IMG/VR virus record: IMGVR_UViG_3300044976_000013 | Span: 1-31,670 of that record | Length of the DNA: 31,670 nt | Direction: 5' to 3' (one strand) | From: a virus | Taxonomy: Duplodnaviria > Caudoviricetes | Shown here: positions 4,501 to 28,874 of the stretch, in pieces | Position numbering within the stretch: position 1 is the first letter of the stretch | Layout: every line of letters begins with the position of its first letter | Notes under the pieces: model-generated | The model's input: the letters and a program-made list of their open reading frames with translations, nothing else | What the model was told of the DNA's origin: nothing | Databases searched by the model: none | Program-made: the position numbers and the translations under genes

Positions 4501-7307
4501 TCGTGCTCCAGTACGTCGCGCACCACCTGTGCAGCGTCTTCGTCCAGGCCGTCGAGCGCGGGCTTCTGCCCATCTCGCATGGCCTCCAGTACGGGACGAA
4601 TCTCGTTCTCGATTTCCGCCACGGGGTCAACGGCCTCGTCGGCCTTCTTCAGCTCGCCCGTGGTGGTTGAGCGGTCGATGTGCAGCGTCCGGCGGGGGCC
4701 GACGAACGCGAGCTGCGGGTGCTCCTTGAACGCGACCTCCTCCGGGGAGAGTGAGGTCTCGCGCGCCTGGCGCTCCATGATGTTCGCGGCCTCCTCCTGG
4801 AGGGACGAGAACATGTCGCTGGCCGGACGGTTGGCGTTGTTCGAGCGCACCAGGATGCCCTGCGCCTTCGCGCGAGCGATGCGCAGGTGGTCGAGCACCG
4901 TCTGGGTCTCCTCCGGGGATAGGCCCTTGGTGACCTCCTCCCACGTGCCGGACCCGTTCTTCGCGACCTTGCCTGCTAGGCCGCTGGGCTCCGCTCCGAA
5001 CAGGATGGACTCTCCCTGCGCGTTCGCCAGCTCCTGTACCAGGTCGCCGTGCTCCCCTGTGGTCACGTCGGCCAGACGTGGCGAGTCACCAATCTGGCCC
5101 ACCTTGCGGCCGTGCAGGCCACGGATGGCAACGCCGGAGTCGCCGGTATCGGTGAGCACCTGGTCGTTCAGCTCAGTCGTGGTGGAGACGCCATCGGCCT
5201 CCCACGTGGTCTGGTCCGGGGAGTAACGCGTGGCGTCATCAGGGTGGATGTCGTCGAGCGTCTGAAGCTCCTCGTTCCAGGTGTCGGGCGTCTCGCCCGC
5301 GCCGATTACGGCGTTCGTGCGGTTCTCCTCGACCTGACGCCAGATGTCGCCCAGGTCGCTGTCCTGAGACAGCTCCTTGATGCGAGCCTCGACCTTCACG
5401 GCCCGGTCCTTCGCCTCGCGCACGTGCGCCAGCTCGCCCTCGTAGGACTCGCCGTTCTCGACGATGGCCTTGATGCGCGCGTCGTAGACGTTCGACGCCG
5501 TGGTGCCGGGGGTCGGGACCAGGCTGCGGTACTCGTTGAGGGCGTCGTACAGCTCCAGCTGCCCTGCCTCGTCCAGCTTCGACTCAGCCTGGCCCACGCG
5601 CTCCGCGACCTGTCGGCCGTTCAGGGCCTTGTCGCCCACGCGAACGGTCTGGATGTCGTCGATGGCCTGCTGGTAGATGTGGTTCGACATGACGTTGGTC
5701 TGGGCCGCGTATCGCGCGCCCAGGCCGCCGCCGCGCAGGACCTTGGCGTGGCTGCTGAAGTGCGCCGTGAGTCCACCGACGGCCTCGCTCGCGCTGTAGA
5801 ACGGCGAGCGGGCACCGCCGCCGAGCTTGCGCGCGACGGCCGGGTTGGCCTTCTTCAGCTCCTTGTACCCGCCGTGCCAGAAGGCTTCCATGTCAGAGGT
5901 CGCCGCCTCGGTGCGCGAAATCATCTTCATCAGCCGGACCTGACCCGAGAGCCCGGCGGCGAACCGGCGGCCAAGCGAGAAGTCCATGGTGCGGGGGATG
6001 AACGCGAGGCGCTGTCCGGCCATGCGGATGTCCAGCACCGGGATGCTGAAGCGCAGGCGCACGCCGCCGAGCGACGCCGCCGCCTCCTTGCCGAACTGGT
6101 ACGCGGTCTTGTCGATTCCCACGCCGGTTCCCCGGCCCACGTAGGACTTCAGGATGTTCTCGACGGCGCTCTTGTCGATACCGAACTTGGAGGCCGCCTC
6201 CGCGCTCCAACGCGCGAAGCCGCCCGTGGACGACTGCTTGAAGCCCACGTCGGCGAGACGCAGCACCTCCTGAAGCGCCTGCTGCTGACCGAACTCCGTG
6301 GTGGCGAACATCGCGCCTGCGCGCGCGTCCGGGTGCACGAGCCCGAGCAGCTCGCGCGCGCGTCCAACGACGCCCGTCGCGGCCTTCTCGGCCAGCGCCT
6401 GACCTGGCTCGGTGAGCCCGAACAGGCCCTTGGCGGCCTGCGTGACCAGCTCGTCCTCGGTGAGCTTGACGCCCGCCTTCTCGGCCGCCTTGCGCGCAAC
6501 GCCGACGGCCTCCTGGAGGAGCACGTTGCTCCCTTCGATGGAACCCGAGCGCAGCGCCGCCTCGGTGGTGGCGATGGCTGCGGTCTTGGCGGCCGCCTCG
6601 CGGCCGAGCCCGCCCATGCCGAGCGTGACGTAGGTCAGCGGGTCGGTGGCGATGTCCAGGCCGAAGCCGATGACGCTGCCAAGGAGCCCATGACCCAGGA
6701 CGCCGGAGTCCGCGAGCACGTCGTCCCACGAAGTGGTGCTGTGGCCCGACAGGGACTGCCACGTGTTCTGCCAGACCGACTCCTTGCCCCAGTCGTGCAC
6801 GATTTCCGGCACGATGTGGGCCGTGCGGCCCATGACCTCCATCACCTGGTCCAGGTGCGTGACATGCAGGATTTCGCCTACGCCGCCGATGACCTTCTGG
6901 AAGAAGCTCCGGTTGTCGGGGGCCTCGACCTGCTTGCCTGCCTGCGCGGCTAGCGTGCGCGCCAGCTCCGGGTTGGCCTGGCCGATGCGAGCCAGGGCAC
7001 GGTCGGTCTGTGCGGCCGCTTCCTCGGGGGTCCAGACGCGGGGGTCGTTGCTAGCCGACACGGCTCCGCCGGTCTGCTGCGCGAGGAACGCCATGGCCTG
7101 GCTGTTGGGGAGCGGAGCCATGCTGGTCTGAACCATCGGCCGGGTCTGAAGCGAGGGGATGGCCGCCTGAAGCGAGCGCTCGTTGGAGGTCAGGCCGAGG
7201 TAGGGTACCGGCTGGAACGCCGCGCCCTGCGGCTGGAACAGGCCGCCCGTGGGCTGATACAGCTGCGGCTGGCCCTGTGGGGCTAGTGCAGAAGCGGGGG
7301 TTGACAT
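1548..7307 (-). CDS. Giant internal virion/DNA-ejection protein (1919 aa), polyvalent-protein-like
   Basis: Last and largest of three genes after the nozzle. Largely helical, with DxxxDPLTY, NPGFHVRN and PFYKWMRTN motifs typical of such proteins. Confidence 0.8.
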   Translation of the reverse strand: MSTPASALAPQGQPQLYQPTGGLFQPQGAAFQPVPYLGLTSNERSLQAAIPSLQTRPMVQTSMAPLPNSQAMAFLAQQTGGAVSASNDPRVWTPEEAAAQTDRALARIGQANPELARTLAAQAGKQVEAPDNRSFFQKVIGGVGEILHVTHLDQVMEVMGRTAHIVPEIVHDWGKESVWQNTWQSLSGHSTTSWDDVLADSGVLGHGLLGSVIGFGLDIATDPLTYVTLGMGGLGREAAAKTAAIATTEAALRSGSIEGSNVLLQEAVGVARKAAEKAGVKLTEDELVTQAAKGLFGLTEPGQALAEKAATGVVGRARELLGLVHPDARAGAMFATTEFGQQQALQEVLRLADVGFKQSSTGGFARWSAEAASKFGIDKSAVENILKSYVGRGTGVGIDKTAYQFGKEAAASLGGVRLRFSIPVLDIRMAGQRLAFIPRTMDFSLGRRFAAGLSGQVRLMKMISRTEAATSDMEAFWHGGYKELKKANPAVARKLGGGARSPFYSASEAVGGLTAHFSSHAKVLRGGGLGARYAAQTNVMSNHIYQQAIDDIQTVRVGDKALNGRQVAERVGQAESKLDEAGQLELYDALNEYRSLVPTPGTTASNVYDARIKAIVENGESYEGELAHVREAKDRAVKVEARIKELSQDSDLGDIWRQVEENRTNAVIGAGETPDTWNEELQTLDDIHPDDATRYSPDQTTWEADGVSTTTELNDQVLTDTGDSGVAIRGLHGRKVGQIGDSPRLADVTTGEHGDLVQELANAQGESILFGAEPSGLAGKVAKNGSGTWEEVTKGLSPEETQTVLDHLRIARAKAQGILVRSNNANRPASDMFSSLQEEAANIMERQARETSLSPEEVAFKEHPQLAFVGPRRTLHIDRSTTTGELKKADEAVDPVAEIENEIRPVLEAMRDGQKPALDGLDEDAAQVVRDVLEHEDKLDAQLADITTEILRKRGYTDVEIAHDGGTEVVSLFDPGTGTVPMARVNPGAARVVDGGSQLRATTSAAREAASGVDSSKGNQLIRSIMRATSNMPRDAAERKARAMMAEAGKALKPHEAFFETKPLAALEQASHDAASRVRNQFIGKAMRSAENLGLSRGGYGAGPVGLAKYNVVLSEQGARWAQGLDDARKSAMQRAAQVSDEHLAVLRREAERLGEETQNAQRHLDELAENNSSRLNGVLNEIRRNTKDEERMATPEDAARKMDTFGRAMDMAFNEGDPAAYTHIGESSAVPGAQIYRVGDPQDITKGVTYVTVEQAKDGTRHIISMRKVGASITDTVERNVSAALTRDGYEHLGLGGELADVHWHDMGISGDWDKMSRAIAAQEFYGTGGGMAAKYVKRQAQSIMKDARSRAKGLERQYRDAQKKLDDASQEALGIEQELNNIAYRQSSERAPVMAALVPKEDALRLTGMRTVALPGFEDHAMPAFMAEEFEHAMRGFPKLDGAHAHFRQFMSWWKTMATWVNPGFHVRNMEGGIFNNWLGGVTVHDYFTTGRIRMAAREISRGEPGKWAKMTLSSKEPDLVRSLLMAEPSGVLMGKELKDLTYGDLAKLTQSLNINASNGRMFAEAALPAEIEAKKYAGRKNFVERIPKFYTKPMRGAGTMTENVLRGASFVRGLRDGRSVMESRAFTMMRHGDYEDLTDWEYKWVRDLIPFYKWMRTNTPFQIHQLLESPGKLLAVQKAQRAVYSAKGLNYDAEQHRVPEWMGDSFTIPFGVAKDPKSGLSTYDTVMLDLPMSDMFMSGREFVSSFLPTVRPFLESYIFHQSTFSAKPLTGKPVEMNPIFTPIAGLLSATGLVTRGADGKAYMSDQTNNLLGIIPIYSRFKNFIFEDPNGASASKRMNVIASAAFGLQLRPVDQAALSSTELNFYYDQVLPTMDYLRGTGYTLPTTDDLSATLGTTDQILKKLGIQAGPPTDAAAA

Positions 7308-23679: not shown

Positions 23680-24603
23680 CTAGTTGAAGACCGGGCCGTT
23701 GCCCGAAGACTTCTTGCCGAACAGGCTGCGGAGACGAACCCCCTTCTCCTTCTCGGTCTCTGCCATGGCTGCCTTCACCGCATCGTTCAGGGACATGCCC
23801 TTCTTGATGTTGGAGTCCGGGTCACCGCTCGTCGCACGCGGCTTGACGCCGCCGCCCTCGGCCTTCTTCGCCGCTGCCTTGGTGGCAGCCGCTACCGCTC
23901 CCTCCACCTCGGCGCGAGCCGGGGCGGCGATGCGGAAGTAGGCCTCGAACGGGGAAGCGATGCCTTCCTCGATGGCGTACCGAAGCACGTCAACGCGGGA
24001 GACAGGGAGCTTCCCGTACTCCGACTCCAGCTGGTCCAGCCCGCTGTTCCATGCCGTTTCCACCTGTCGGGTGGTCTCGACCTGGGCGAGGCCTTCCACG
24101 CGGTCTTCGAGAGCGAGGACCGTGCGGGCCAGCTGTAGCTCAACCTTCGAGGGCTGGTTGTACGCGTCCTCGGGGTCGTACCCGAGTGCGATTGCCAGCG
24201 CCTCGTCCGATACGTCCTCGTCTAGAGGGGCATCGGCGGGAACTTCGGGGGCCTCTGGCTTTGCCGCCAGACGCTCCTGGAGCTGATGGATGAAACTCTC
24301 CTGCTGCTGGAGGTGGGCGAGAACTTGCTTCGCCTGCTCCTCGGGGAGTCCTTCCAGCGTCTTCCGGTAGAACTCGGGGACCTCGAACTCCTGTACTTCC
24401 GCCTCGGGAGTGGTCTCCTCGTCTCCGGTCTCGGCCGTACTCGGCTCGCTACCGTCGCCCGCCGCAGGTTCCACGGGCTCGTCCGCATCGTCGTACGCGT
24501 CCCAGGAGTCGTTCCCTGTGTCGTCGTCCGCGAAGGGCACTTCGTTCACTGCCTCTGCGAGCGCTGCCCGCAGGTCATTCGCTACTGCGGCCTCATCGGC
24601 CAT
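23680..24603 (-). CDS. Capsid scaffolding protein
   Basis: Real start MADEAAV at 24603 (RBS GGAGG). Very acidic N-terminus, coiled coil and basic C-terminus, immediately upstream of the major capsid gene. Confidence 0.82.
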   Translation of the reverse strand: MADEAAVANDLRAALAEAVNEVPFADDDTGNDSWDAYDDADEPVEPAAGDGSEPSTAETGDEETTPEAEVQEFEVPEFYRKTLEGLPEEQAKQVLAHLQQQESFIHQLQERLAAKPEAPEVPADAPLDEDVSDEALAIALGYDPEDAYNQPSKVELQLARTVLALEDRVEGLAQVETTRQVETAWNSGLDQLESEYGKLPVSRVDVLRYAIEEGIASPFEAYFRIAAPARAEVEGAVAAATKAAAKKAEGGGVKPRATSGDPDSNIKKGMSLNDAVKAAMAETEKEKGVRLRSLFGKKSSGNGPVFN

Positions 24604-24673
24604 GTGATGCCTCCATCTGTACCCTTCGCCTCGGGCGCGGTGCGCCTGTACTAGGGCCTCGGTAGGTGGGTCG

Positions 24674-24745
24674 TGTACACTCCAGGAGTCGAACCTGGTC
24701 CTGCCGGGCTTCAACCGGCCGCTGCTCCGAGTCAGCTTAGTGCAC
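24674..24745 (-). tRNA. tRNA-Phe(GAA)
   Basis: Cloverleaf; loop UUGAAGC; T-loop UUCGACU; A8 and G37. Confidence 0.85.
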
Positions 24746-24746
24746 G

Positions 24747-24826
24747 TGGTGCGCAGGGAGGGAGTCGAACCCCCAGTGCCGTCGGCCACGGCTTTACAGG
24801 CCGCTTCCCCCCGTGGGGTCCTGCAC
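24747..24826 (-). tRNA. tRNA-Tyr(GTA)
   Basis: Loop CUGUAAA, long variable arm, encoded CCA; atypical D-arm CCCC-ACGG-GGGG. Confidence 0.85.
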
Positions 24827-24827
24827 G

Positions 24828-24904
24828 TGGTGGGCAACCTGGGATTCGAACCCAGACTCTCTGGTTTCTGAGACCAGCGCGTTTACCGATTTCGCCAATC
24901 GCCC
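24828..24904 (-). tRNA. tRNA-Leu(CAG), short variable arm
   Basis: Loop CUCAGAA, Leu-type D-arm, A73 and encoded CCA. Confidence 0.85.
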
Positions 24905-24908
24905 GGAG

Positions 24909-24982
24909 TCCACACCCTTGGAGTCGAACCAAGCTGTACGCGCTTATCAGACGCGTCCCTACAACCGGATGGGTCGATGTGG
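24909..24982 (-). tRNA. tRNA-Ile(GAT)
   Basis: Loop CUGAUAA; T-arm CUUGG-UUCGACU-CCAAG; A73. Confidence 0.85.
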
Positions 24983-24983
24983 A

Positions 24984-25061
24984 TGGTCGCGGACGGGAGA
25001 GTCGAACTCCTCTGTGCACGGCTTATGAGACCGGCGAGCCCACCGGGGCTCTACGTCCGCA
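24984..25061 (-). tRNA. tRNA-Met(CAT), or Ile2 if C34 is modified; best folded as 8/4
   Basis: Loop CUCAUAA, encoded ACCA, fMet-like D-stem GAGC/GCUC. Confidence 0.8.
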
Positions 25062-25067
25062 GTGAAG

Positions 25068-25140
25068 ACCCTTCCCCAGGGTTCGAACCTGGCATCTCGA
25101 CGTTCAGAGCGTCGCGTCCTGCCAACTAGACCAGGAAGGG
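25068..25140 (-). tRNA. tRNA-Gln(CTG)
   Basis: Anticodon arm CGACG-CUCUGAA-CGUCG. Confidence 0.85.
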
Positions 25141-25146
25141 GTGGAG

Positions 25147-25230
25147 AGGAAGGCCCGGGAGTCGAACCCGGAGACCGATAACGGCCGCTCCCTTAGCAGG
25201 GGAGGTGCGTCGCCAAGTTGCCGACCTTCC
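25147..25230 (-). tRNA. tRNA-Ser(GCT)
   Basis: CUCCC-CUGCUAA-GGGAG, long variable arm, GGA start. Confidence 0.83.
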
Positions 25231-25235
25231 GTGAG

Positions 25236-25308
25236 AGGCGCGGGCCGGACTCGAACCGGCGTGCCGGAGTTTGCAGTTCCGTTTCTGGAGCCACTCGAAT
25301 ACCGCACC
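25236..25308 (-). tRNA. tRNA-Cys(GCA)
   Basis: Loop CUGCAAA; U73 discriminator. Confidence 0.85.
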
Positions 25309-25313
25309 TGGAG

Positions 25314-25382
25314 CCCCCAGTGTAGGATTCGAACCCACGTTGCCCGGTTTAGGAAACCAGGCGCTTTCCTTTGCAACTGGGG
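25314..25382 (-). tRNA. tRNA-Arg(CCT), truncated D-arm
   Basis: CUGGU-UUCCUAA-ACCGG; perfect acceptor stem; about 69 nt. Confidence 0.78.
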
Positions 25383-25386
25383 AAGC

Positions 25387-25416
25387 TAGATAAAGGATAG
25401 GCCGTATCCTTATCTA
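25387..25416. other. AT-rich hairpin within the tRNA array
   Basis: tagata-a-aggata-ggccg-tatcct-tatcta. Confidence 0.6.
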
Positions 25417-25420
25417 AGAG

Positions 25421-25492
25421 AGCCCCCGCGAGGAATCGAACCCCGTCCTCTGCCGTACGAAGGGAGTGTTCTACCGTTAGCACTACAGGGGC
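25421..25492 (-). tRNA. tRNA-Thr(CGT)
   Basis: Loop UUCGUAC, GCC start, one C-C mismatch in the anticodon stem. Confidence 0.8.
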
Positions 25493-25504
25493 GTGGTGTT
25501 GCAG

Positions 25505-25576
25505 TGGGTCCCCAGGGAATCGAACCCTGTCAGGGCGGGTAAGAGCCGCCTATGCCGCCTCAAACATCTGAGACCC
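25505..25576 (-). tRNA. tRNA-Lys(CTT)
   Basis: GGCGG-CUCUUAC-CCGCC; A73. Confidence 0.85.
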
Positions 25577-25580
25577 GGAG

Positions 25581-25652
25581 AGCGATGCGCGGGGCTTGAA
25601 CCCGCTCCTCGACCTTGGCAAGGTCGCGTGCAGCCAGTGACACCTGCACCGC
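25581..25652 (-). tRNA. tRNA-Gly(GCC)
   Basis: CGACC-UUGCCAA-GGUCG, GCG start, U73. Confidence 0.87.
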
Positions 25653-25653
25653 G

Positions 25654-25741
25654 TGGAGGAAGGAGGACGAATCGAACGCCTGTGGCTCTCACCACCCCCG
25701 GGTTTCGAAGCCGGTAGCCGACCATTCAGCTTTCACCTTCC
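25654..25741 (-). tRNA. tRNA-Ser(CGA), possibly 8/4 fold
   Basis: Loop UUCGAAA, long variable arm, encoded CCA. Confidence 0.8.
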
Positions 25742-25745
25742 AAAG

Positions 25746-25820
25746 AGGGCTCCCGGGGAATCGAACCCCGCTCCGTTCTGGTTCGTAGCCAGATGTCCAC
25801 CTCCAGCGAACTCGGAGCCC
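25746..25820 (-). tRNA. tRNA-Arg(ACG)
   Basis: UCUGG-CUACGAA-CCAGA; perfect acceptor and T stems. Confidence 0.85.
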
Positions 25821-25890
25821 GAGAGAACCGATTTGCGCCTGTACACGGCGTTGGGGTCTCGGTTCTACAACCCGGGGCTCTAGTCCCCAG

Positions 25891-25962
25891 CGCCACAGAC
25901 CGGAATCGAACCGGCCTCACGTGATTGACAATCACGCAGCCACGCCAGCTGCTTCCTGCGGC
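25891..25962 (-). tRNA. tRNA-Asp(GTC)
   Basis: CGUGA-UUGUCAA-UCACG; G73. Confidence 0.85.
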
Positions 25963-25966
25963 AGAG

Positions 25967-26038
25967 TGGAGAACCGGGGAATCGAACCCCGACCGTGTGG
26001 TTGCAGGCCACGCGTGCTACCCTTGACACCAGTCCCCC
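25967..26038 (-). tRNA. tRNA-Ala(TGC)
   Basis: G3:U70 identity pair and A73; loop CCUGCAA (C33). Confidence 0.85.
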
Positions 26039-26042
26039 AGAG

Positions 26043-26114
26043 TGCACGGCCGAGGTGCTGCCCCCCGTACCCGCTCCTTGTAAGGGAGCCGCTCTGCTGA
26101 TGAGCTACCCGTGC
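26043..26114 (-). tRNA. tRNA-Val(TAC) with a non-canonical T-loop
   Basis: GCUCC-CUUACAA-GGAGC; T-loop GGCAGCA; D-loop AUCAGCA. Confidence 0.75.
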
Positions 26115-26162
26115 AGGTGCCGGAAGTGTTCCGGCTGAACCAGGTCACTACCCTGGCCTGAG

Positions 26163-26237
26163 AGCGCCGCGTGGGATTCGAACCCACCCCGCCTGGTTGG
26201 AAGCCAGGTATGCTGTTCCGCTAGACACTAGCGGCGC
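26163..26237 (-). tRNA. tRNA-Gly(TCC)
   Basis: CCUGG-CUUCCAA-CCAGG; U73. Confidence 0.87.
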
Positions 26238-26289
26238 GAGATGGCGGGAGCGACCCGCCTACCCAGGTGCGACCCGGGCCTTGCTCTTT

Positions 26290-26472
26290 CTACTTCGCCT
26301 TCTTCTGCATCAGGCGGCGGTACGCGGCCGACCCCACGTCCCCGAGGTTGGGGATGGGCGGCGCGTTGGTGCTCGTCTGGTGCTTGCCGTGGTAGACGCC
26401 GCGACGCTTCAGGTCAGCGGCGGCCTCCTGCGACTTCGTGCGGCGCGTGCCGCGCTTGTCGGATGCCGACAT
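26290..26472 (-). CDS. Small basic protein (60 aa) embedded in the tRNA array
   Basis: RBS GAAAGGAG, GC3-biased codons, Arg/Lys-rich. Confidence 0.72.
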   Translation of the reverse strand: MSASDKRGTRRTKSQEAAADLKRRGVYHGKHQTSTNAPPIPNLGDVGSAAYRRLMQKKAK

Positions 26473-26537
26473 GAGTGCTCCTTTCGGAGCCCATCTTCAG
26501 GCCCCTATAGGGTTCCACTCATGTCATTCTCCTTTCG
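26468..26537 (-). promoter_or_regulatory. Structured leader with uORF (MSGTL*) sequestering the start of the 60-aa gene
   Basis: 10-bp inverted repeat GACATGAGTG/CACTCATGTC; duplicated CGAAAGGAG RBS. Confidence 0.55.
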
Positions 26538-26611
26538 TGGGGTGACGCACGGGAGTCCAACCCGTGACTGCCGGGACACAACCGGCCGCGTTAGCGTTAC
26601 GCCAGCGTCAC
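26538..26611 (-). tRNA. tRNA-His(GTG)
   Basis: GCCGG-UUGUGUC-CCGGC, C73 and encoded CCA. D-loop GC and T-loop UUGGACU form a compensatory swap. Confidence 0.82.
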
Positions 26612-26613
26612 AC

Positions 26614-26670
26614 TGGTTGGAGCGGCTGCGGCGGTTCCATCCCCTATCGTGCAGGGCGATGCCGCTCCAA
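26614..26670 (-). ncRNA. tRNA-like mini-RNA ending in CCA
   Basis: 10-bp terminal stem UUGGAGCGGC/GCCGCUCCAA followed by CCA, spaced like the flanking tRNAs. Confidence 0.45.
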
Positions 26671-26671
26671 G

Positions 26672-26742
26672 TCGGGTAGGGAGGAATCGAACCTCCGTCA
26701 CGTGAGTCCGAGTCACGCAGCTTACCATTGGCACACCACCCG
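26672..26742 (-). tRNA. tRNA-Pro(CGG)
   Basis: C1-G72 and A73; CGUGA-CUCGGAC-UCACG. Confidence 0.85.
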
Positions 26743-26743
26743 G

Positions 26744-26818
26744 TGGTAGTCCGTACGGGATTCGAACCCGTTCCGCCCAGTTTGAGGGACTGGCGACCTT
26801 CCTGTAGTCTAACGGACC
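26744..26818 (-). tRNA. tRNA-Glu(CTC)
   Basis: CCAGU-CCCUCAA-ACUGG (C33); encoded CCA. Confidence 0.82.
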
Positions 26819-26819
26819 A

Positions 26820-26895
26820 TGGCTCCAGCTCCTGGATTCGGACCAGGCTCTCGCGGGTAACAGCCGCGCGTCTCCGCCAAGTTGACCTAGCTGGA
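26820..26895 (-). tRNA. tRNA-Asn(GTT)
   Basis: UCC start, G73, encoded CCA; loop CUGUUAC. Confidence 0.87.
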
Positions 26896-26896
26896 A

Positions 26897-26967
26897 TGGC
26901 ATCGGGCCGAGGAGTCGAACCCCGTCTGGCAGGTTTGGAATCTGTTACGTTCCCCAACGTGCCCGAT
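26897..26967 (-). tRNA. tRNA-Trp(CCA)
   Basis: Loop UUCCAAA, G73, encoded CCA; atypical D-arm ACGUU-GGGG-AACGU. Confidence 0.82.
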
Positions 26968-27008
26968 ACGTCTTTCCCTATAACGCTAGGGATTGACGTT
27001 CTATTCCC

Positions 27009-28874
27009 CTAGCCGGGAGTGATGCTGAGGCCAGGCGGCGCGCCCGCGCGCTGCTGCGGCGCGACGGCGAGCTGAGCTGCCTGGTCCTGTGCCTGCTTCA
27101 TCGCGACCTCCTGGTCCGAGCGCACGACTGCGCGCACGTCCTCGTCGCGGAAGCCCATCTCGCGGGCCACGAACCGAATCAGCTCGCCCCGGTCCGTTTC
27201 CGGCAGGGGGAGCGCGAGGTTCATGAACTGCATGGCGCGCTGCACGCGCTGGTCACGCGTCAGGTTCTCCTTCGGCGTGATGGCGATGGAGATGTCGGCG
27301 TCGAGCGCGATGTCTTCCTTGTTCCACTTCCACTCGAACTCCTGTCCGAGGTCGTCGGTGAAGCGGAGCATGCGGTCCTGGTCGTAGAAGACCTGCATCA
27401 GCTGGAGCATCGTGCCCGCGATGGCGAGGTACCAGTCGGTCAGCGCGCCGCGCCGCTCGCTCTGGCGCTCCTCGCCCTTGCCGGTGACGATTTGGGTCTC
27501 CGTGGCCGTGGTGCGCTTCGACGGGAAGACGCCACGCATGGGCTCGTTGACCCCGGTGGCCTCCTTCATCTCCGCCTGCACCTGCTCGGGAATCTGGTAG
27601 CTTTCCTGCGGGAGCGACGGGAGCTGTACCTGGCCGATGCTGTCCTTGCCGTGTCCACCCGAGAGCGGAACGTACTCGCCCCACACGTTGGACTTGAACT
27701 TCTCCTTGCCGTCGGAGTCGAGCGCGTCGCTCGGGCCGAAGAACTTGGGGATGGTGCGCGTCACGAAGGTGGCCTGGTTCGACCGATACTCGTCCAGCTC
27801 CTTCAGCCCAGGGTAGATGACTCGCATGTCCCCCAGCCCCTCGAAGTTCTCCGGGTCATCCCGGACCACGAGCGGCTTGAAGGGGTTGCGGTCCTCCAGG
27901 TCGAGGTTGAACATCAGCGGGTTGATGCGCTGATGGAGCACCAGGTCGTCATGCTCCTTGGGGAACACGGTGACCAGGCCAGTCTCAAAGTCCCACAGCT
28001 CGACGACGGTGATGCGGGAGTCGTCCTCCTCCTCGTCCTCGCCGAAGTAGTTGAGCAGGTTCGCGTCGTAGTCGAGGCCGGTGGAGGCGTGCGAATCGGC
28101 GGCAAGGTCGTCCAGCATCTTCGGACCCTTGCGCGCGCCGTAGCGCTCGGCCGCGAACTCCCGCCAGGCGGGGTTGTTCTTGACCTCGGCCTCCGGGAGC
28201 GCCGTGTACTGCGCGACCCAGCGCACGTCTTCAATCTGGCGCGCGGTGGTGTCGTACCGGATGAGGTCCCACGGCACGTAGTCGATGCACACGCGGTCCC
28301 GCATGATGACGGTCACGCTCTCGACGGCCGTGATGTCGCCTGCCTCGACGGCGGCGGCCACCTGGTCGTCGGTGACGTTGGACATGTCGTCGCCGAAGTA
28401 GTCCAGAATCTGCGCTTCCAGCGCCGACTTGGGCACGTCGCGGAGGTCGGTGTCCTCCTTGTAGTCGTAGTACACCTTCACCCAGCCGACATCGGCGAGG
28501 AGCGCGTCCTTGATGGCGCGCTTGGCGCGCTTCTGGCCCTTCGTGTCGCTCCAGGCCTGGTTGAGGCCGCGCGTGGCGACCAGCGCCTGGTCTGCGGTGC
28601 CGTGACCGATGTTCTGGCAGATGAACTCCACGTCCACCGCCACCATGTTGGCGAACATCGTGTCCACGATGCCGACGCCGGTCGCCACCTGCACCACGTG
28701 GCCGTCGTCGGTCACCTGGTCGGCGTTGACTTCTCCCCGGTAGCGGGCGATGAAGCCGCGACGCTCCTCCTCGCCCTTCTCGAACTTTGTGTCGGCCATG
28801 CGAAGGCGGCGGTTGTACACCTTCAGCATCGTCTCCTCGTCCTTGTAGACGCGGAAGACTTCGTTGGCTGCCAT
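27009..28874 (-). CDS. Portal protein (podovirus/P22-like)
   Basis: 621 aa directly after the large terminase. Motifs DALLADVGWVKVYY, VVELWD and ATGVNEPMRG...TATE. Confidence 0.9.
   Translation of the reverse strand: MAANEVFRVYKDEETMLKVYNRRLRMADTKFEKGEEERRGFIARYRGEVNADQVTDDGHVVQVATGVGIVDTMFANMVAVDVEFICQNIGHGTADQALVATRGLNQAWSDTKGQKRAKRAIKDALLADVGWVKVYYDYKEDTDLRDVPKSALEAQILDYFGDDMSNVTDDQVAAAVEAGDITAVESVTVIMRDRVCIDYVPWDLIRYDTTARQIEDVRWVAQYTALPEAEVKNNPAWREFAAERYGARKGPKMLDDLAADSHASTGLDYDANLLNYFGEDEEEDDSRITVVELWDFETGLVTVFPKEHDDLVLHQRINPLMFNLDLEDRNPFKPLVVRDDPENFEGLGDMRVIYPGLKELDEYRSNQATFVTRTIPKFFGPSDALDSDGKEKFKSNVWGEYVPLSGGHGKDSIGQVQLPSLPQESYQIPEQVQAEMKEATGVNEPMRGVFPSKRTTATETQIVTGKGEERQSERRGALTDWYLAIAGTMLQLMQVFYDQDRMLRFTDDLGQEFEWKWNKEDIALDADISIAITPKENLTRDQRVQRAMQFMNLALPLPETDRGELIRFVAREMGFRDEDVRAVVRSDQEVAMKQAQDQAAQLAVAPQQRAGAPPGLSITPG

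Follow-up and report, generated by a model that had tools for sequence, protein, structure and literature searches.

The window, meaning the whole 31.7 kb stretch of DNA analysed here, is a piece of a tailed-phage genome, with PHROGs matches for the large terminase subunit, the portal and the major head protein. A phage tRNA array (24673-26981, minus strand) lies between the portal and head genes. ARAGORN makes 21 calls in it; a tRNA-Ser(CGA) that appears when the threshold is lowered and a manually added tRNA-Val(UAC) bring the count to 23 tRNA genes. The portal protein gene (27009-28874, minus strand) was the query for finding relatives. The sequencing runs in which pieces of the array occur are DNA metagenomes from sediment or freshwater. 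A promoter and terminator scan of the array region was empty, and intrinsic terminators (GC hairpin followed by a U run) occur at no site in 24400-27200.

The tRNA-Val(UAC) (26042-26114, minus strand), missed by ARAGORN, has an unusual T loop and is degenerate, as is the tRNA-His (26538-26611, minus strand), with UUG in its T loop and a U at position -1. Also degenerate is the first tRNA of the array (26897-26981, minus strand), which is called Val(AAC) and has CCA in its loop; relatives have a tRNA-Trp at this place. The array also contains a conserved leader (26465-26537, minus strand; 4570-4642 in the related locus L001 and 4988-5062 in L002), found again in L093 at the place matching 3440-3510 of L033. 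It holds a ribosome-binding site and an upstream ORF of 5-7 codons (26505-26522 in the window, read by eye). The start of this upstream ORF is predicted to pair with both the start codon and the ribosome-binding site of a 60-aa ORF, which is conserved. Across four sequences, 4 of the 22 predicted pairs are changed on both sides, and the leader looks like a translation-coupled switch embedded in the tRNA operon. The 60-aa ORF itself (26290-26472, minus strand) is basic, has no Pfam or PHROGs match, and is conserved in L001 (95%), L033 (55%) and L002 and missing from the arrays of L006 and L048. After the last tRNA and ahead of the next gene, the motif CCGAGGCCC ... CCGAG ... GTACAG (24600-24672, minus strand) is conserved in six relatives. 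As its sequence is conserved and its structure weak (-3.3 kcal/mol), it is possibly a DNA site or a late promoter.

A 57-nt helix-closed unit (26614-26670, minus strand) is located between tRNA-Pro(CGG) upstream (26671-26742, minus strand) and tRNA-His(GUG) downstream (26538-26611, minus strand), both called by ARAGORN. An earlier note had described it as a CCA-ended RNA that is not a tRNA, and its letters are as quoted there. The 5′ arm (26661-26670) and 3′ arm (26617-26626) are an exact inverted repeat, giving the perfect 10-bp closing helix that had been reported, and the encoded CCA (26614-26616) follows directly. The last A of the 3′ arm can serve as discriminator. The inner hairpin (26639-26660) consists of 3 bp, one bulged G, 4-5 bp and a loop of 5 or 7 nt, and is followed by a 12-nt linker (26627-26638) that is weakly paired or unpaired in suboptimal folds. 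The hairpin of the earlier note is thus present in a modified form: a G-U pair closes its 7-nt loop to 5 nt in the predicted fold, which also adds an AUC/GAU extension, so that the hairpin is stacked directly on the closing helix on the 5′ side with no linker. Spacers of 1-2 nt had been given on both sides; the one towards tRNA-His is 2 nt, and the ARAGORN tRNA-Pro touches the unit.

Read in the register of a tRNA end, the first U is a junction and the unit has a terminal stem of 9 bp (U1-A72), then A73 and CCA. The stacked length in the predicted fold, with the first U again counted as junction, is 9 + 3 pairs. A cloverleaf with D, anticodon and T arms is absent according to ARAGORN and Rfam, and the reported lack of D and T consensus agrees with this, as neither a tRNA call nor an Rfam match overlaps the unit. 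An Rfam search with the unit alone gave one chance-level match (E 4.2), and the tRNA model gave none even at E 10. The minimum free energy of the 57 nt is -26 kcal/mol (z -2.84), a value equalled by 4 of 200 shuffles. As for the 10-bp terminal helix, none of 500 dinucleotide shuffles attained one (P 0.002), and one is present in 21 of the 10537 59-nt windows of the minus strand. When the unit was folded together with both adjacent tRNAs, nine of the ten pairs kept probabilities of 0.93-0.98, and the outer U-A pair had 0.63.

Searches for homologues were negative throughout. No match covering 80% of the unit was found in 50,697 phage records, and no homologue was found in 72,556 plasmids, the best match being inside a traU gene (E 0.002) and taken as chance. 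Neither blast nor nhmmer found a homologue in the loci compared. Exact patterns of the unit matched 2, 1 and 8 loci in viral contigs, all of them chance or ordinary tRNAs, and a one-sequence covariance model, for which the unit itself was the only positive control, found no homologue in 60 sources and 26 records. A pattern search for the tRNA-His returned 0 metagenome contigs and 2 viral contigs, both already part of the comparison, and a search with the major head protein gave no related loci. The same acceptor stem was looked for in cellular tRNAs of 61 genomes of the phylum of G018, a genome tied to the phage solely by a binned portal-bearing contig and possibly not the host, and gave background-level matches only.

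The portal search recovered 28 viral loci, 41 viral loci by profile, 21 metagenome loci and 1 genome locus, most without an adjacent array. The Pro-His order is kept in four other arrays, those of L001, L048, L002 and L006 (portal identity to the window 91%, 70%, 68% and 61%, respectively). In L001, L002 and L006, tRNA-Pro and tRNA-His are 1 nt apart and the 57-nt unit is absent, making the unit a clean 58-nt insert (26613-26670) in the window. The junction is equally empty in contigs of sequencing runs X3 and X4; since these contigs look L001-type, they are not independent events. In run X2 the junction between tRNA-Pro and the unit is found without differences, but the sequence reaches just 15 nt into the unit, too short for bridging. 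Run X6 did not cover the unit, and run X1 may be where the window itself comes from. The slot is filled in L048, by a 79-nt unit that begins UUGG, ends CCAA and is closed by at least 8 pairs. Its interior does not align with that of the 57-nt unit, and a three-way alignment of the window unit with units of L048 and L006 shows no inner similarity. The portal tree pairs the window with L001 as sisters (100/100) and places L048 with them in a clade of 11 rows that excludes L002 and L006. The simplest reading is that the window and L048 slots were filled separately, bearing in mind that an array need not follow the portal tree. The structural conservation in relatives that had been proposed as a check is therefore divided: the sequence is not conserved, being absent from the empty junctions and without homologue, and the architecture of paired ends and tRNA-like packing does recur, in unrelated units of which one occupies the same slot.

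The Pro-His slot is one of several that differ between close relatives. The window has three further inserts missing from L001, and L001 has two missing from the window. The Gly to Val insert (26115-26161, minus strand) consists of two hairpins with a short closing helix, the Asp to Arg insert (25821-25889, minus strand) of a hairpin and a helix-closed unit, and the Thr to Arg insert (25383-25419, minus strand) of a long near-perfect hairpin; all three are absent from L001 and L002. One contig of run X5, at depth 3.8, also skips the Asp to Arg insert and otherwise differs at two of 346 bases. The tRNA-Arg(CCU), tRNA-Gln and tRNA-Leu alleles differ between the window and L001 amid near-identical neighbours, whole tRNA alleles being exchanged in as patchy a manner as the inserts.

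Endonuclease genes offer a candidate agent for this exchange. Five ORFs of the L006, L048 and L093 arrays were tested, and each of them matches HNH endonucleases in PHROGs (Pfam matches were weak or none); no HNH gene was found among the ORFs examined in the window's own array. In L048, a 5′ stub resembling tRNA-Lys(CUU) (6591-6612) stands directly ahead of an HNH ORF, and suggests that the endonuclease gene entered a tRNA gene. HNH genes and pseudogenes are reported to occur with long bacterial tRNA arrays (PMC8421152). The T4 endonuclease SegB is described as recognising a T-loop motif, often cutting right after CCA and converting the tRNA region of T2L (PMC2330249). The likeness lies in a free-standing endonuclease within a tRNA cluster, as SegB swaps its tRNA region between related phages and the relatives described here carry HNH genes in their arrays; SegB, however, is a GIY-YIG enzyme, and the comparison concerns movement of the unit, not its function.

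Spacers of the arrays were then considered as a class. All 25-140 nt gaps between same-strand tRNAs were scored, G-U pairs allowed, in nine arrays (window, L001, L002, L006, L015, L017, L048, L055 and L093, the last reached through the small ORF of its array and not through the portal); duplicated contigs and longer ORF-bearing gaps were excluded, giving 30 spacers. At least 7 uninterrupted closing pairs were found in 15 of the 30, against 1.47 expected, one of the 15 being a decayed tRNA (L048 7616-7689) from which a low-score ARAGORN call had been removed. The closing helix reached P<0.05 in 13 of the 30; as the phages are related, the 30 spacers are only partly independent of one another. 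The unrelated mycobacteriophage Erdmann has helix-closed spacers as well (4 of 9), which shows that the trait is not confined to the lineage of the window. End pairing is not obligatory, as the other 15 spacers have no 7-bp terminal helix, and some of these contain two units and are missed by the test. The helix-closed units are mutually unrelated, including long palindromes (one of 22 bp), three-way junctions and decayed tRNAs, and no common loop sequence was seen among them. Helix-closed, swappable inserts are a widespread set in phage tRNA arrays, and the class was not found catalogued in a literature search that fell short of most subscription journals, including the old T4/T5 stable-RNA papers.

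Some individual units deserve mention. The L048 7616-7689 unit is tRNA-like and 8/4-like, with 8 bp in the terminal stem, 4 bp in the T stem and an anticodon arm that has shrunk; Rfam makes no call on it at gathering threshold. The perfect 22-bp palindrome is at L093 2518-2574, between tRNA-Asp and tRNA-Cys. Erdmann (L094) has two related helix-closed spacers of about 120 nt (5851-5976 and 6780-6897), each with an inner T-loop-like motif, which are unannotated and have no Rfam match at gathering threshold. In several units of L006, L048 and L093 the first inner helix abuts the 5′ arm, the mirror image of a tRNA T arm; this linker-free 5′ helix, noted without statistics, is seen in the 57-nt unit as well, and other units differ.

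The CCA end of the unit is not above the local background. CCA stands 0-2 nt upstream of 11 of the 23 tRNA genes of the window, and ACCAC also ends two short unstructured spacers (Lys to Thr in the window, Glu to Pro in L001), so that the triplet fits the junction vocabulary of the array. Among the 15 helix-closed units, CCA follows the helix directly in the 57-nt unit only; in 10 of the 15 the first or second tail position is a C, near the expectation from composition (estimated, not computed). In six arrays, CCA is encoded by only 33 of the 147 tRNA genes, and the sister units could therefore gain theirs enzymatically.

The insert is shown to be a real, strain-specific, helix-closed unit, and its absence in relatives, the end pairing across its class and the rapid turnover of inserts are shown as well. 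We hold with moderate confidence that it is a swappable, self-contained passenger cassette rather than a dedicated tRNA mimic, predicted to be released by tRNA processing. What makes the passenger reading likely is that close relatives do without the unit and carry other, unrelated fold-back inserts instead. The array would be one transcript, read from the portal side, and the unit would be set free when the 3′ end of tRNA-Pro is trimmed and RNase P cuts at tRNA-His, these steps being those of established tRNA processing. Release by the processing of its neighbours, as the earlier note had also proposed, is reasonable to expect from the packing and the self-contained fold. Once free, the unit with its 9-bp stem, A73 and CCA would resist exonucleases, and the A73-CCA end could itself direct RNase P. 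Selection would keep the end-to-end pairing and not the inner sequence or the CCA. Paired ends would let an insert fold alone, so that the neighbouring tRNAs fold and mature normally, and the enrichment for end pairing would be explained because an end-paired insert could not misfold with its neighbours and would be cut out like a tRNA. Recombination between the flanking tRNA genes would add and remove units, probably with help from HNH endonucleases of the relatives' arrays, in the manner of SegB.

By itself, the passenger model leaves unexplained why inserts are so frequent in compact 50-kb phages, and why the unit has the exact register of a tRNA end (U1-A72, A73, CCA). A second reading, which we think possible but unlikely, is that the unit is a purposeful decoy of a tRNA end, its acceptor-like stem with A73-CCA, and perhaps an anticodon-like loop, soaking up host enzymes that attack tRNAs, with the variable units forming an arms-race library. 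Besides the register of 9 bp, A73 and CCA, the 9 + 3 stacked pairs add up to 12, given as the length of the tRNA acceptor branch (PMC5389517). The open form of the loop has ACG-A at the anticodon positions, as in the phage's tRNA-Arg(ACG). The unit in the same slot of L048 has identical first and last four pairs, and the shared UUGG start and CCAA end could reflect shared ancestry or a shared target; the match is four pairs only, and GG starts and CUU junctions are common in these arrays. Inserts turn over among near-identical strains, and such fast turnover is equally expected of a counter-defence cassette. The decoy keeps real weight for this reason, turnover of structured cassettes being typical of counter-defence loci, and for its exact end register.

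Against the decoy, no homologue was found in any of the phage, plasmid and model searches described above (50,697 phage records, 72,556 plasmids, 60 sources and 26 model-searched records). The proposal in the earlier note of a tRNA mimic or decoy, or of a minihelix that can be charged, found no direct support, the CCA being a common junction sequence and present in just 1 of 15 helix-closed units; its lack in the sister units is not decisive, since most tRNA genes here do not encode it either. The unit has no D/T elbow and no U33, and its inner helix is on the 5′ side, as the mirror image of a T arm. Synthetases that charge minihelices use the signals G3-U70, G-1/C73 and U73, which are absent from the unit. 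Finally, the 23 real tRNAs of the phage would already serve as decoys. A broader form of the idea, to be regarded as tentative and rather unlikely, is that the arrays of this family are a hypervariable small-RNA library, in which units would be expressed through processing, would inhibit or act as decoys for tRNA-attacking defence, and would be swapped between strains as anti-defence genes are, the 57-nt unit being an acceptor-end decoy with a mirror-image 9+3 branch.

It is improbable that the unit is the eroded remnant of a lost tRNA gene, reduced to its acceptor stem and CCA after collapse of the arms. Phage tRNAs that start UGG with U1-A72 do exist (L085, L086), decayed tRNA-like units with a T arm are present in L048 (7616-7689) and L093 (2162-2235), and tRNAs of the array already show degenerate loops. 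None of the four other arrays with Pro before His, however, has a tRNA in the slot, the tRNA model fails as noted above, and a perfect helix that exceeds an acceptor stem in length does not resemble a product of decay.

We regard as very improbable an RNA anti-CRISPR, i.e., a solitary mimic of a type I-E repeat inside a protective stem. The hairpin and the bases following it align loosely with the I-E repeat of L108 (score 29, equalled by 29 of 1000 shuffles), but 47 of 1664 57-mers of the window and 2 of 29 other family spacers score as high. The alignment is gapped and far below the near-full matches that SRUFinder requires as described in PMC10651486; there is also no match to an Rfam CRISPR repeat and no multi-copy plasmid match among the best 20 of 25. 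A CRISPR-like pattern found nothing in G018 and, across 201 genomes, six matches, each of them single. A solitary CRISPR repeat of the Racr type was rejected for its near-background score against eight real I-E repeats, whose phylum may not be that of the host, following criteria set out in PMC10651486. A self-cleaving theta/HDV-like ribozyme making the 3′ end of tRNA-Pro is hardly credible, for although the unit is directly at a phage tRNA 3′ end and of theta-like length (PMC10879173), its fold is nested and not a double pseudoknot, no hammerhead or pistol core is present in it, and an HDV descriptor (our own, built from recall and not the published theta descriptor file) had 0 fits on the sense strand, with two antisense fits showing its noise.

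Near-identical phages of this family carry one slot in natural filled and empty forms, and the family supplies some 15 unrelated units with paired ends, so that small synthetic constructs could decide directly between passenger and decoy. Should the units be decoys, a class of RNA counter-defence would have been overlooked in spacers to which annotation pays no attention. Should they be passengers, they would explain a frequent false alarm in genome scans, and would show a folding rule governing what a tRNA polycistron can accept as an insert. RNAs of the T4 RNAC/RNAD type in phage tRNA clusters are still without a known job.

Several known systems resemble the unit in part. The YrlA Y RNAs are described as non-coding mimics of tRNA, that of M. 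smegmatis being cut by RNase P and gaining CCA (PMC4201824). YrlA RNAs have D and T arms and a module that binds Ro60, and are found near the Ro60 gene, whereas the unit has neither a D or T arm nor an Rfam match. No Ro60 gene was seen among the window proteins compared with PHROGs (16) and with Pfam (6), which are part of the ORFs of a 31.7-kb piece. Allo-tRNAs with a 9/3 or 8/4 acceptor branch are reported, some of them in phage tRNA clusters (PMC5389517), and the unit resembles them in its 9-bp terminal stem and three stacked pairs. They are full cloverleaves, however, with the T stem, on the 3′ side, as their short stem, and the stacked helix of the unit is on the 5′ side. An allo-tRNA identity was rejected, as the unit has no D, anticodon or T arm. 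Theta ribozymes are small RNAs described as abutting phage tRNA 3′ ends (PMC10879173), and the 5′ end of the unit is likewise within 5 nt of a tRNA 3′ end; their P1-P2-P3-P1.1-P4 double pseudoknot with a catalytic C in J4/2 was not found in the unit with our own descriptor.

The nearest known kind is the pair RNAC and RNAD of phage T4 (T-even RNA species I and II). These RNAs are co-transcribed and processed like tRNAs, end in CCA, and are about twice as long as the unit. Their expression has been shown by experiment, independently of Rfam, whereas the unit is a predicted RNA and strain-specific, with no match at 80% cover among the 50,697 phage records. PMC9697503 and PMC2330249 describe RNAC and RNAD as RNA genes that are not tRNAs, of unknown function, inside a phage tRNA cluster, and the 57-nt unit is like them in being a non-tRNA element packed within such a cluster.
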